From the NCBI GenBank assembly GCA_041662785.1, contig JBAZRW010000001.1:261256-325255 (forward strand): DNA of 64,000 nucleotides. The letters run 5' to 3'. Positions 1 through 9,410 of the stretch are shown one piece after another; the first letter of the stretch is position 1; each line of letters opens with the position of its first letter. Under the pieces are notes generated by a model, which made no database searches, had not been told where the DNA came from, and worked only from the letters and a program-made list of their open reading frames with translations. Source of the DNA: Bdellovibrionales bacterium. Its GTDB lineage: Bacteria > Pseudomonadota > Alphaproteobacteria > UBA9219. The translations under genes were made by a program, and so were the position numbers.

Positions 1-788
1 TCACGCAACCACGGCTTAGCTTGGTCTTCCAAAATCTCCAAGGCTCTTTTCAAAGGAACCTGCGACCCCAACAGAGCGGAAAGCCCCAGCAAAAAGCCAC
101 TGCCTTGCAACACGCGATACCACGACCATGGCGGCCACATATCGAATTTAGCACGTATAGGCCCTTTCCATATGGGCAAAGTCACCGTGATAATCATGCA
201 AGTGACCGCGATCCCCACCAAAACCCATATACCCCAGTTGGCAATAAAATCAGAAACCGTGGCCACGCCGCCCATGGCCGCCATAACGCTAGGCGGCGCT
301 GTTTTACGCATATTCTGAATCAAATTAACGCCAAACATCCACAAAACAAAAGAAACCAAGATGATCATAAAGCCCGGGTACGCCACAGCATAGGTCACGG
401 CGCCCTTCATCTCGCGCGCCCTTGCCCCAATAGTTTGGATTGACGCGAAGGCTTTAGCCATCGTGCCCGATTCTTCACCAGCACGGATCATATAAAGCTC
501 TGAATCAGGGATCCACCCCTCCATAGCATCCGAAAGCCCCAGCCCCGCACGATCTTTCAAGAACCATTCCTTCAAAGCCAAGGCCGCTGGGCGGTCTGGA
601 TGTTTTCCCATTTCAGAGGCGTTTTGATAAAGACGGTCAAGAGAGCGCGAAAGCGCTTCGTTCATGCGGAGCATGCCTTCCAGCTTACGGTAAACACGAA
701 ACCGCTGCTTGCGATTGTTTTTGAACTGAAGCTGCGCCCACCGGCGGCTGATAGCCTCTGTATCAAACGATATTTCATCAAAACTCAT
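1..788 (-). CDS. Type II/IV secretion platform protein (GspF/PilC/R64 PilR-like), N-terminal part; the gene runs off the window at its 3' end
   Basis: Manual reverse translation from the ATG at 788 downward gives MSFDEISFDTEAISRRWAQLQFKN...AGEESGTMAKAF...GFMIILVSFVLWMFGVNLIQNM..., an open frame to position 1 with TM segments typical of GspF-family platform proteins. The start overlaps the upstream ATPase stop as ATGA. It is absent from the ORF track because it has no stop within the window. Confidence 0.5.
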   Translation of the reverse strand, partial: MSFDEISFDTEAISRRWAQLQFKNNRKQRFRVYRKLEGMLRMNEALSRSLDRLYQNASEMGKHPDRPAALALKEWFLKDRAGLGLSDAMEGWIPDSELYMIRAGEESGTMAKAFASIQTIGARAREMKGAVTYAVAYPGFMIILVSFVLWMFGVNLIQNMRKTAPPSVMAAMGGVATVSDFIANWGIWVLVGIAVTCMIITVTLPIWKGPIRAKFDMWPPWSWYRVLQGSGFLLGLSALLGSQVPLKRALEILEDQAKPWLR

Positions 789-2767
789 GGCATCACCCCA
801 AGTCTTTGTTCAACTTCGATCAGTTCTTTCTCGCTGGCCATAATCCCAACCTCAAATTCGGCATCGTCGGGAGAAACTTCTCCGCGCCTAATTTTCTCCA
901 AGGAGTGCCACAGCATGGTAACACCATTCATTCCTGTCGGCGACAGCCAATAATCTCGCGCCTCTTCCATGCGATTGTCTTGAAGAAGTTCCATAATTTT
1001 TTGGTCGGTTTCGATCACTTCGGCGCAAATCGTTCTTCCCGCCCTGCCGCGGAAACAATGGGAGCACCCTTCCGGATTAGCAACATAAACCTGCCGCATG
1101 TCTGGCTCTGACAAACGATCATAAACGCCTACGCTTCCCCCCTTGCGCGAGGAGTCCATGATGGCAAGGCCAGCGCGAACGCGCCGCGCAAGTTCCTTAT
1201 AGTGCGGGCCAAGTTCAGTCGGCGCCTCGGCCAAGGGAATGCGACAATGAGAGCACATGCCGCGCAATAACCGCTGGCAAAACATGCCGCGCAGTAAATG
1301 GTGATCATAGACAAGGTATGGCTCCATACCAATATCACGCAAACGCTGCGGAACCGCGAGCGCTGCATAAACGTGCGTCGTCGTGTAAACTTGACGCCCC
1401 GTCAAGGATAAGCGAAAGGCAAACTTGGCCGTTTGAATATCACGAACCTCACCGAGCATGACAATGTCAGGGTCAAGACGCAGGGCACAACGCATGATCT
1501 CAACAAAAGACTTTTCGCGCTGCTCATCTTTAACCGAAGAAGAAACGCCGACCTGACGCGCCCCGACGATACCGCCTTCAGGAGGATCCTCCACCAACAA
1601 ACAGTTCAACTGCATGTTGGTTTCCGCCATGCGGCGATTAAGCGTCACACGCAAGGTTGTCGTCTTGCCTTGGTTGACGGGCCCCGCAAACACGCGCATA
1701 CCCCCGGGCGCTTGCCGGAGGCTTTGGACGACCTTAAGTTGTTCTTGTGAAAAACCAAGAGAGTCTACGTCGGCCATAATAAAGTTTTCGCCGAACAAAT
1801 GCGCCGAGTCATATTGAAGGCGCATATCCAAATAACGCCCACCATCCGACAACGGAACCCACTGGCAACGAACCGAGATCACGCCTTTAGGCAAAGCCAG
1901 CGCATCAGGCCCCGTGGACGTAGAAGTCAACATGGCCGCTTGCGGCTCTTGCCAGTTCGCTGTTGCGCCCGACTGCCCCACCGAGTGGGAATAAACGGAC
2001 GACAGCATCAATTCGCCTTCTTTTTGCGTCCACGTCTCCCACAGGCGCAAAGCGCCATCAATGCGAAACTCGATGCGCGTACGTCCTTCACTAGCCTCTA
2101 TGTGGACGTCATTGGCGCCAGCCTCAACTGCTTTTTGCAAGGTGTCGACGATGCGGCGGCGTACGGCATTATCATCCAGCCTTGAAACAGACGATTTTCT
2201 ATCGGCATACAGATAGGCTTGACGAATGATGTTGGGGGTTACATAGCGAGCCGCATTAATCTGATAGCCATGACGCGCTGCCATCTGCGCAACCGACGTC
2301 ACCAACGGAGACAAGCGGTGCGAGGCACTAACAAGCCACATCCCGTTTTCAAACAAAGCACACAAGTTGCGTGCTTCATCGGGTATCTTGAGCTTACCCC
2401 CCTCGACCGTCAGAACATCGCCAGAAAACTCTAAGCCGCCCGCAATCGCAAGGCTGCGTTCGTCTTCAATTGTTATTTCTGCAGGCCGTTCAATCATCGC
2501 GCCCGCTTTTTCTGGCTCAAGGTCCGTCAGCTCTCCTGAATCAATTCCTTGTTTGCCTTTTTCTTTGGAGGAGGGCGACGTGGTGGCTTTTTCAGAGGCA
2601 CTGGCAGACTGCGTCATCCCGCCTGAAGTTCGTGCTTTAGCTCTGATTGTCGGGGGGGCAACGTTGGTCAATGTCGAGGCAGGAATTTCAGACAAGCGTC
2701 CCTTCCCCGTTTTTCCTTGAAACGCGGTGCTTATCATATCTTTTATTTCTTCAAGAATATCCAGCAC
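785..2767 (-). CDS. GspE/PilB-family secretion ATPase (R64 PilQ-like type IVb pilus ATPase)
   Basis: 660 aa. Walker A GPVNQGKTTTL, MLGEVRD (Asp box/Walker B region), and the tetracysteine CxxC...CxxC motif (CSHCRIPL ... CSHCFRG) typical of GspE-like ATPases. It sits next to a secretin and a platform protein. Confidence 0.7.
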   Translation of the reverse strand: MLDILEEIKDMISTAFQGKTGKGRLSEIPASTLTNVAPPTIRAKARTSGGMTQSASASEKATTSPSSKEKGKQGIDSGELTDLEPEKAGAMIERPAEITIEDERSLAIAGGLEFSGDVLTVEGGKLKIPDEARNLCALFENGMWLVSASHRLSPLVTSVAQMAARHGYQINAARYVTPNIIRQAYLYADRKSSVSRLDDNAVRRRIVDTLQKAVEAGANDVHIEASEGRTRIEFRIDGALRLWETWTQKEGELMLSSVYSHSVGQSGATANWQEPQAAMLTSTSTGPDALALPKGVISVRCQWVPLSDGGRYLDMRLQYDSAHLFGENFIMADVDSLGFSQEQLKVVQSLRQAPGGMRVFAGPVNQGKTTTLRVTLNRRMAETNMQLNCLLVEDPPEGGIVGARQVGVSSSVKDEQREKSFVEIMRCALRLDPDIVMLGEVRDIQTAKFAFRLSLTGRQVYTTTHVYAALAVPQRLRDIGMEPYLVYDHHLLRGMFCQRLLRGMCSHCRIPLAEAPTELGPHYKELARRVRAGLAIMDSSRKGGSVGVYDRLSEPDMRQVYVANPEGCSHCFRGRAGRTICAEVIETDQKIMELLQDNRMEEARDYWLSPTGMNGVTMLWHSLEKIRRGEVSPDDAEFEVGIMASEKELIEVEQRLGVMP

Positions 2768-2878
2768 GAGTTAAACCGATCCTGTGATCACGCCCCACAA
2801 ACGGCATTGGTCACCACTCCTTACGGCAGGGCTAACGCAACACGACAAAGTATAAGCATCGGTTCGTCAACAAATCCT

Positions 2879-8109: not shown

Positions 8110-8150
8110 TCTTTTATTCCCTTCAGGGGCACAGAAGCCTCCCCCTTTAA

Positions 8151-9410
8151 TTAAATCATGGTCGTATCGTCATCGAGCAAAGCCTCAATATCCTGATGAG
8201 GCTCCGTCTCTGTCGGGTCAGCAAAAGAGGGGTCATAATCTTTTTCATCAATTGTGTAGCCCTTTGTCAAAACCAAATAGGTTCTGCGATCGATCAGGCC
8301 TTGTTTGAAGGCCCTGTTAGCGGCTTGCTGCATCGTTTGTCCATAACGAACCAGAAAACGCTGGGTTTCCAGCGTCCATTTGTCGATGGACATATCCAAA
8401 AGTTGTTCGCGAATGTTATCGTCGAAAACAAGATATTCCCTTAAGCCAATGCGTCCGCCGCCCACTTTGGGAACCAGCGCTTGCGTCACAACCATGCGCA
8501 ACGTTTCCATCAACGCAAAGGCACGCTCACTGCGCTCCGCTGGCTCAAAAACGCTGATAATACGCCTTACCGTTGCCGCGACGCCCACGGTGTGAACCGT
8601 TGAGAAAACCAAGTGGCCCGTTTGGCCCGCTTCAATCGCCGCCGACATCGTTTCCCTGTCTCGCGCTTCACCAACCAAAATAATGTTAGGCTTGCGGCGC
8701 AAGGCATTGCGAACACCCGCCGCAAAGGTTGGAATATGGCGCGGCACTTCAGACTGGGCCACTAGAGAACGTGGCCCCGTGATACTGTCATAAACATATT
8801 CAATAGGGGCTTCATAGGTCAGAAGCTTGCCAGAGCCTTGTTCTCTCTCAATTAGCATCCGGCAACCAGACGCCAAAAGCGTCGTTTTACCACTTCCCGT
8901 CGGACCCGTTACTAAAATAAGGCCCTGACGCGGCGACCAGTTCCGCATAATGGGCTCTTCTATCCCCAAATCGACCATACTTGGCGGCAAACCGGGCAGG
9001 CTGCGAAGAGTAATTTGAACCGAATCACGACCACGACTTAAAATCGCCGTGATGTTGGTGCGGAACCGATAACGCGTTAGGCGTTCAGGCCTAACCTCAT
9101 ATGAGAGGTCCAAATCAACACCAGAGGCCAATTTGGCGAGCGCTTCAGGCCCGTAAATACGCATAAGGATATTGGCCATATCCGCCGAGTCCATAGCCCG
9201 TTGCGTTATCGGGTACAAAACCCCATCCACCTCGATAACAATGGGCCGATCCGTCTGAATGCTGACATCGGTGGCGCGGCTATGGACGCACCACAACAAA
9301 AGATCATCAACGTGTTCTTCTTGAAGGCGCAACGGTTCATTCGTCCAACCCGCCGCGAGTCGAACCTGAAAATCTTCTGCGCTTAGATTTAGCGGGGAGC
9401 CGTTGTCCAC
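8151..9410 (-). CDS. dotB: DotB/TraJ-like PilT-family hexameric ATPase of a type IVB secretion system
   Basis: 419 aa. LILVTGPTGSGKTTLLAS (Walker A), ILVGEARDRETMSAAIEAGQTGHLVFSTVHT (PilT/DotB signature). It follows DotC and DotD genes in the conserved dotD-dotC-dotB order. Confidence 0.75.
   Translation of the reverse strand: MDNGSPLNLSAEDFQVRLAAGWTNEPLRLQEEHVDDLLLWCVHSRATDVSIQTDRPIVIEVDGVLYPITQRAMDSADMANILMRIYGPEALAKLASGVDLDLSYEVRPERLTRYRFRTNITAILSRGRDSVQITLRSLPGLPPSMVDLGIEEPIMRNWSPRQGLILVTGPTGSGKTTLLASGCRMLIEREQGSGKLLTYEAPIEYVYDSITGPRSLVAQSEVPRHIPTFAAGVRNALRRKPNIILVGEARDRETMSAAIEAGQTGHLVFSTVHTVGVAATVRRIISVFEPAERSERAFALMETLRMVVTQALVPKVGGGRIGLREYLVFDDNIREQLLDMSIDKWTLETQRFLVRYGQTMQQAANRAFKQGLIDRRTYLVLTKGYTIDEKDYDPSFADPTETEPHQDIEALLDDDTTMI

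Follow-up and report, generated by a model that had tools for sequence, protein, structure and literature searches.

Type IVb pilus genes beside a Dot/Icm-type secretion gene cluster on an alphaproteobacterial chromosome

The thin pilus of plasmid R64 serves the plasmid's own type IVB secretion system (T4BSS), and in PAPI-1 pil genes are paired with a different, GI-type, type IV secretion system (T4SS). IncI1 plasmids encode the two machines in the order pilI-L-M-N-O-P-Q-R-S-T-U-V, rci and then traE-F-G-H-I-J-K, so that pil lies upstream of traHIJK and is separated from it by the shufflon/rci and traEFG. Chromosomal T4BSSs that translocate effectors have been assigned almost entirely to Legionellales, together with a small number of Gammaproteobacteria related to them, and a 2024 review lists T4BSS for gammaproteobacterial endosymbiont lineages only (PMC11338181). 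Here, we describe a locus in which Dot/Icm genes and a type IVb pilus (pil) cluster stand side by side on the chromosome of an alphaproteobacterium. The locus lies in a stretch of 64,000 nucleotides (nt), hereafter the window (contig JBAZRW010000001.1, positions 261,256 to 325,255), and we consider it rather likely that it represents a chromosomal, plasmid-derived T4BSS of the Dot/Icm or mating-pair formation (MPF_I) type that has been domesticated and has retained its companion type IVb thin pilus operon.

All genes of the combined cluster are on the minus strand, in the order o284-SLT-DsbG-o94-DotD-DotC-DotB-IcmT-PilL-N-O-P-Q-R. Its features are as follows (aa, amino acids):

13523..12669, minus strand: o284, 284 aa, first gene of the conserved module; predicted to be cytoplasmic and all-alpha, without a known family
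12667..12212, minus strand: lytic transglycosylase, TrbN/IagB-like (NF010463 TrbN, E 1e-22; SLT Pfam, E 6e-4)
12148..11147, minus strand: periplasmic DsbG/DsbC-like disulfide isomerase (NF008657 DsbG, E 4e-23), conserved in synteny
11133..10849, minus strand: o94, a 94-aa membrane protein, conserved in synteny
10712..10239, minus strand: DotD/TraH lipoprotein (PF16816, E 1.9e-25; NF033882, E 5.8e-27; lipobox LVAGC)
10261..9389, minus strand: DotC/TraI outer-membrane core lipoprotein (PF16932, E 2e-72)
9410..8151, minus strand: DotB, PilT-like hexameric ATPase of the T4BSS (TIGR02524, E 1.2e-117)
8109..7843, minus strand: IcmT/TraK, 88 aa (NF038220, 81.6 bits, cutoff 40)
7842..7539, minus strand: icmT-pilL spacer of 304 nt, candidate pil promoter/operator
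7538..6507, minus strand: PilL-like secreted protein with a C-terminal TcpQ domain (PF10671, E 1.5e-15) and a signal peptide read from the translation
6494..4896, minus strand: PilN-family lipoprotein secretin of the type IVb kind (TIGR02520, E 1.3e-80; lipobox LFGC)
4895..3630, minus strand: PilO (PAP_PilO), bitopic inner-membrane accessory protein (PF06864, E 6.5e-33)
3646..2879, minus strand: PilP, periplasmic accessory protein (TIGR03021, 36.3 bits, cutoff 34.65)
2767..785, minus strand: PilQ extension ATPase (PF00437/T2SSE, E 8.6e-53; Walker A at residue 362)
788..1, minus strand: PilR, GspF-like platform, first 262 codons, truncated by the window edge; ATGA overlap with pilQ

A preliminary description of this DNA had reported a PilL-like protein, a secretin lipoprotein, PilO- and PilP-like proteins, an ATPase with a tetracysteine motif and a GspF-like platform protein downstream of dotB on the same strand, and family matches now support each of them. 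PilL (through its TcpQ domain), PilO and PilP exceed curated cutoffs, and the order L-N-O-P is that of IncI1 minus PilM. The secretin scores 271 bits against TIGR02520, slightly below the equivalog cutoff of 287.65, and only 36 bits against GspD; among solved structures its best sequence match is BfpB (198 bits, versus 31 bits for the type IVa PilQ). For the PilQ ATPase, whose tetracysteine motif CSHC...CSHC occupies residues 505-508 and 568-571 of the translation, the closest solved structure is BfpD (230 bits, versus 134 for GspE). PilQ is 30% identical to its IncI1 counterpart over 449 aa, and PilR is 28% identical to IncI1 PilR. The PilL-like TcpQ-domain protein is the probable partner of the secretin. 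By gene content and by the order PilL-N-O-P-Q-R-S, the identification as an R64-type type IVb pilus set holds. PilQ also carries an N-terminal extension of ~115 aa with a high content of E, S, A, T and G, which lies outside the BfpD alignment (this begins at residue 117); the IncI1 form of PilQ is about 517 aa long, and long forms of 666-688 aa occur in relatives as well.

The pilins are encoded just outside the window. Logan contig L001, which differs from the window by one base across an overlap of 12.7 kb, runs on past position 1; it contains pilR entire (369 aa, PF00482) and, beyond it, two prepilin genes. The first encodes a 207-aa protein (MTKKNRG|MTLTE...) scoring 19.2 bits with the PilS model, slightly below cutoff, and the second a 215-aa protein (...HKRAG|FSLIE...) for which the N_methyl, Bundlin (23.3 bits) and PilS (22.8 bits) models are all above cutoff. 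Prepilin genes, which the preliminary description had proposed to look for by extending the contig, are therefore present; a PilU-type peptidase and PilV with a shufflon, to be sought in the same way, were not found. A tblastn search with IncI1 PilU, run on the window and on a search set of 64 loci (L001-L064), gave no match, no Peptidase_A24 gene is present on L001 within 10 kb downstream of the cluster, and neither matches to IncI1 PilV and PilM nor a shufflon were found in the window or in related alphaproteobacterial loci.

After the prepilin genes, L001 continues with unrelated genes and then an opposite-strand Tad/Flp pilus locus. In several genomes such a locus is found a few kb at most from where the pil cluster ends (L001 16784-21983; L002 20597-21719); its genes are TadC, TadB, CpaF, CpaE and CpaD, to which relatives add Flp, the CpaA peptidase and RcpC. 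A CpaA-type peptidase and an flp gene are found 1-3 kb downstream of the cluster in several relatives, and this is the sole prepilin peptidase type seen near the type IVb prepilins. In many relatives, the pilin genes are followed by a gene for a pilin-like protein of ~490 aa whose N-terminus bears a methylation motif and whose C-terminal domain is Peptidase_S74, an intramolecular chaperone (L002 18356-19834; also L006, L013, L025, L028-L030, L036, L053, L058 and L059). This protein, which was not found on L001 or in the present organism, is possibly a large tip adhesin, analogous to PilV and unrelated to it.

The Dot genes next to the pilus cluster are as clearly assigned. DotB scores 393 bits with its own profile (TIGR02524) versus 238 bits with TraJ. 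IcmT, besides exceeding its cutoff, is 68% identical to PF28014-bearing genes of related contigs; a 151-aa open reading frame (ORF) at 7677-8132, between dotB and pilL, was rejected as a spurious overlapping frame because the 88-aa frame it overlaps matches IcmT/TraK above cutoff. For dotD, a 198-aa ORF with a GTG start that reaches 10835 is probably an over-extended call of the 157-aa gene present on L001. The lytic transglycosylase is 24% identical to IncI1 PilT (E 7e-6) and, to judge by this likeness, could possibly replace PilT of R64. The first gene of the module, o284, keeps its place upstream of dotD in the majority of linked loci having enough upstream flank; its 323 homologues (59-88% identity) are without exception annotated as hypothetical, and a Foldseek comparison of its AF2 model (pLDDT 74.6) with the Protein Data Bank (PDB) returned nothing at E<=0.001. 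Its conservation across the clade exceeds that of the secretin, and o284 is a candidate clade-specific component of the T4BSS or the pilus.

At the junction of the two modules, the account needs revision. The preliminary description had the pil cluster fused directly to dotDCB, with short gaps or overlaps (ATGA coupling), and did not name icmT. Most neighbouring genes do lie close together, overlapping by as much as 23 nt or standing up to 41 nt apart, and the ATGA overlap is that of pilQ and pilR; exceptions are the gaps of 111 nt between pilP and pilQ and 304 nt between icmT and pilL. Between dotB and pilL, icmT and a spacer with a conserved upstream region intervene. Likewise, the range of 1 to 9410 that had been assigned to the combined cluster takes in the pil genes and dotB, with dotD and most of dotC falling outside it. 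Within the spacer, the pilL-proximal ~150 nt (about 7540-7690) is strongly conserved in close relatives and contains a perfect palindrome, GTGTGT-N8-ACACAC, at 7643-7662, which is unique within the window (0.02 expected by chance). Together, these features suggest separate regulation of the pilus genes, which probably have their own regulated promoter inside the gap, and the palindrome may be the operator for a pil-specific regulator. As a system-wide operator it was ruled out, since it occurs in just the three closest loci. A scan of positions 1-14000 for promoter and terminator consensus sequences gave counts indistinguishable from those of shuffled sequence, and an Rfam search of the entire window returned no hits.

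Two further groups of Dot genes are found elsewhere in the window:

35260..27087, minus strand: second T4BSS cluster, comprising DotI, a DotI paralogue, DotH, DotG, a DotF candidate, a DotE/TraQ-like protein, a 174-aa protein and DotN/IcmJ
58821..51337, minus strand: third T4BSS cluster, comprising a DotO candidate, DotM, a 176-aa protein and the DotL coupling protein

With them, the outer-membrane core of a T4BSS is present (DotC, DotD, DotH, with a PF12293 match at E 5e-69, and DotG, NF033900, at E 2.5e-46), and DotB, DotM, DotN and DotL each have a family match. The DotF candidate is 434 aa long; DotO is a candidate only, a protein of 1020 aa with a Walker A motif, no transmembrane segment and weak VirB4 matches. 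Housekeeping genes are interleaved with the Dot clusters, namely those for GroEL, GltX, ComEC, LexA, FlgE/K/L, AckA and Pta, and ComM is also encoded in the window. Among the ORFs of at least 140 aa that were scanned across the 64 kb, no match to relaxase, replication, partition or integrase families was obtained; a scan for tRNA genes in the window found none, GC content shows no anomaly (pil 0.525, dot 0.523, window mean 0.527), and megablast of positions 1-12000 against plasmids gave no match. The chromosomal setting and the lack of a relaxase-family match in 64 kb fit the earlier suggestion that the machine has been domesticated.

PilN of the window is identical to MFA6279409.1, which is encoded on a 519-kb contig of a metagenome-assembled genome (MAG) labelled "Bdellovibrionales bacterium". 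NCBI taxonomy places Micavibrio under Bdellovibrionales, and the closest genomes (PilN 88%, DotB 96% identity) are labelled Micavibrio sp.; from these database labels, not from phylogeny, we infer that the source is a Micavibrio-like alphaproteobacterium. A scan taking one genome per species yielded 57 loci, all in MAGs and nearly all with alphaproteobacterial or Micavibrio-type labels, and these were compared by tblastn with the window proteins. The full order from o284 through IcmT-PilL-N-O-P-Q-R to the pilins is present, as far as the contig permits, in 40 of the 51 evaluable loci, with PilN identity down to 39%; among the linked loci are those of a chromosome of 1.64 Mb, OZ251993.1, and of a contig of 1.97 Mb, JGI Ga0606649_0000001. 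In the other 11, the pil cluster is without dotDCB within about 10 kb upstream. MAG REEB112 carries both modules on one contig, more than 10 kb apart, and its dotB and icmT are separated by four opposite-strand genes. Identities of Dot and Pil proteins co-vary across loci (Spearman 0.57-0.91), and in a rough neighbour-joining tree of PilN and PilQ all deep branches are linked, and a single nested subclade holds the majority of the unlinked loci. Because synteny is so widely kept, the two modules co-vary and the deep branches are linked, the dot-pil linkage appears to be ancestral and long maintained; given the 11 unlinked loci, it is not obligatory.

The cultured M. aeruginosavorus ARL-13 did not turn up in the genome scan, although a missing pattern match is not proof of absence. 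The ARL-13 genome paper states that neither a type III secretion system nor a T4SS is present. In the literature, no published report of a T4BSS in Micavibrio or Micavibrionales was found.

A conjugative ancestor of the locus is indicated by MPF_I plasmids of Xanthomonas and Acidovorax, which carry the same gene order, and together with the evidence above this makes a domesticated T4BSS with its companion pilus the reading we hold to be rather likely. Several points weigh against it. DotA/TraY and IcmX were not recognised among the window ORFs, and IcmS, IcmW, IcmQ and IcmR were not identified in the window, where small ORFs were not scanned systematically. The relaxase result covers the 64-kb window only, and the assignment to Micavibrionales depends on the database labels of MAGs. 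In this organism's cluster, neither a peptidase for the prepilins nor a retraction ATPase nor a large adhesin of the PilV type was found. Finally, the 304-nt gap with its conserved pilL-proximal region and the 11 unlinked loci mean that co-transcription of dot and pil is not required.

The last of these points also bears on the possibility that the pilus is independent of the T4BSS, serving instead in attachment to surfaces or prey, in twitching or in the uptake of DNA, with its position beside dotDCB-icmT a relic of plasmid ancestry. The spacer has its own conserved upstream region and palindrome, 11 of the 51 loci have lost the linkage, among them that of REEB112 with its modules more than 10 kb apart, and the adjacent Tad locus makes the region resemble a pilus neighbourhood. 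We nevertheless regard independence as unlikely: the linkage is ancestral and persists over very deep divergence, the divergence of the two modules is correlated, the same pairing has been kept on unrelated plasmids, and the thin pilus of R64 is established as serving its T4BSS.

It is quite improbable that the locus belongs to an active MPF_I integrated conjugative element or plasmid that still transfers DNA, even though its coupling protein scores 369 bits with the TrbC conjugation model, the closest architectures are on plasmids, one of them with a MOBP relaxase, and an excisionase-like HTH_17 gene is paired with a PIN gene at 60.6-61.8 kb. Genes for GroEL, GltX, LexA, flagellar proteins and AckA/Pta divide the Dot genes into three separate clusters; the 64 kb contain neither tRNA genes nor matches to relaxase, integrase or replication/partition families; and there is no GC anomaly, while synteny is conserved across the lineage.

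That the pil genes encode an apparatus like that of type II secretion (T2SS) or the Tad system, for secretion or as a pseudopilus, is very improbable: GspE is the best NCBIfam match of the ATPase, though well under cutoff, and an incomplete T2SS was reported in the 2011 Micavibrio genome paper, but by the scores given above the secretin matches BfpB better than T4a PilQ and the PilN-family model better than GspD, the ATPase matches BfpD better than GspE, PilO, PilP and the TcpQ domain are accessories specific to type IVb pili, and prepilins matching the PilS and bundlin models are present, so that what the preliminary description had named as its own refutation, no prepilin or peptidase nearby together with a grouping of secretin and ATPase with T2SS or Tad components, was not observed.

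How a domesticated T4BSS with a companion pilus would work can be proposed by homology with R64, the bundle-forming pilus (BFP) and toxin-coregulated pilus (TCP), and Dot/Icm. PilN and the TcpQ-domain PilL would form the outer-membrane channel, which PilO and PilP would bridge to the inner-membrane platform PilR, and the Zn-binding tetracysteine ATPase PilQ would polymerise the two PilS/bundlin-type pilins. These would be cleaved by a peptidase encoded elsewhere, with CpaA of the neighbouring Tad locus as a candidate. The DsbG-like protein and the lytic transglycosylase would assist with pilins or secretins that contain disulfide bonds and with crossing the peptidoglycan. The pilus would then bind the target cell and hold it against the envelope-spanning DotC/D/H/G core, through which DotL/M/N, DotO and DotB would drive substrates, proteins or possibly DNA, into the target. 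Such a contact role would be analogous to that of the R64 thin pilus, which stabilises mating pairs in liquid.

More tentatively, and as a possibility about which we remain doubtful, the uncultured Alphaproteobacteria with small genomes that are grouped around Micavibrio, an epibiotic predator, may as a whole lineage of order rank have vertically inherited a chromosomal Dot/Icm-like T4BSS with a dedicated type IVb contact pilus, which would serve them to grip prey bacteria or protist hosts and to inject effectors into them. If so, an effector-type T4BSS would for the first time be known from a lineage other than the deep-branching intracellular Gammaproteobacteria, and "leeching" predation would have a candidate molecular basis. 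The conserved system with its attached pilus operon, present in dozens of MAGs, offers a hypothesis, open to test, on the way in which these little-known and probably predatory or host-dependent bacteria make contact with target cells, and the locus would be a natural example of a conjugation machine domesticated along with its pilus. The gene string dotB-icmT-pilL-pilN could serve as a simple synteny marker for finding such organisms in metagenomes.

Several neighbouring genes are of interest in their own right. Four tandem paralogues (13700-19717, minus strand; 458-524 aa, 25-48% identity), directly upstream of the o284/SLT/DsbG/dotD module, have signal peptides and share eight invariant cysteines; they are conserved in closer relatives and have no Pfam or PDB match. 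Searches of the PDB by phmmer and hmmsearch with the 1020-aa, 469-aa and 519-aa proteins and with a profile of the four paralogues gave nothing significant. Two more secreted proteins, encoded at 19724-21749, have a segment of ~110 aa in common. Upstream of the paralogue array and on the same strand is the gene for a membrane protein of 467 aa that contains the O-antigen ligase domain Wzy_C (22345-23748, minus strand); because the Wzy_C family includes the pilin O-oligosaccharyltransferases PilO/TfpO and PglL, this protein might glycosylate pilins or other secreted proteins. A Sel1-repeat protein of 220 aa is encoded at 39644-40306 (plus strand), between comEC and lexA, and proteins with this repeat are among the known Dot/Icm-associated virulence factors of Legionella. 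The HTH_17 and PIN-domain genes, which follow one another at 60658-61801 (plus strand) and adjoin comM, could form a toxin-antitoxin pair or be what is left of a mobile element.

The relationship of the locus to the described systems differs from one to the next. To IncI1 it is alike in pairing the same two machines, in the internal pil order L-(M)-N-O-P-Q-R-S and in the correspondence of traH-I-J-K to dotD-C-B-icmT, and homology is detectable for TraI, TraJ, PilN, PilO, PilQ, PilR and PilS at identities of 24-33%. The IncI (R64) character claimed in the preliminary description is therefore right for the gene sets; it does not extend to the arrangement, since the order of pil and traHIJK is the reverse of that in the window, the Dot proteins are nearer to those of Legionella, and PilM, the PilU peptidase and PilV, all of which IncI1 has along with PilT, were not found. 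IncI1 is moreover a plasmid with a relaxase, whereas the window locus is chromosomal.

The Dot/Icm systems of Legionella and Coxiella resemble the locus in being chromosomal and distributed over several loci, in gammaproteobacterial rather than alphaproteobacterial hosts. The window order DotI-H-G-F-E-P-N matches what we take to be the Legionella order, icmL-K-E-G-C-D-J. Legionella dotDCB is followed by dotA-icmVWX, not by icmT and pil, and no type IVb pilus is present, in agreement with the earlier statement that the combination is foreign to that system. DotD, DotC and DotB of the window are 31, 39 and 47% identical to those of Legionella, compared with 30, 33 and 36% for the Xanthomonas plasmid, and IncI1 is further off; DotB is 47% identical to DotB of Legionella adelaidensis and 28% to IncI1 TraJ. 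For the pilus, BFP of enteropathogenic E. coli supplies the closest solved structures of secretin and ATPase, BfpB and BfpD, and the second pilin matches the Bundlin model, but BFP is without PilL, PilO and PilP accessory proteins and has no associated T4SS.

The closest arrangements are those of the MPF_I plasmids. Xanthomonas campestris plasmid NZ_CP066940.1 has the window's order on one strand, DotD-DotC-DotB-IcmT followed by TcpQ/PilL-PilN-PilO2-PilP-ATPase-T2SSF-pilin, with a hypothetical gene, ParM and another hypothetical gene between IcmT and PilL; after the pilin it continues with a PilT-like ATPase, PilV and PilM, none of which was found in the cluster of the window organism. Acidovorax carolinensis plasmid pACP3.1, which carries the MOBP relaxase, has the same order from DotC on, with no DotD annotated, and then a PilT-like ATPase. 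Both systems are on plasmids with rep/par genes and have ParM/StbA and small ORFs between icmT and pilL, and the window proteins are only 22-44% identical to theirs. Plasmids of Bosea, Teredinibacter and Lichenicola carry dotDCB without pil genes, icmT being annotated in Bosea and Lichenicola only. Because the Xanthomonas and Acidovorax plasmids share the order, the novelty lies not in the architecture itself but in its being chromosomal, dispersed and spread through a lineage, in a group for which no published T4BSS was found.

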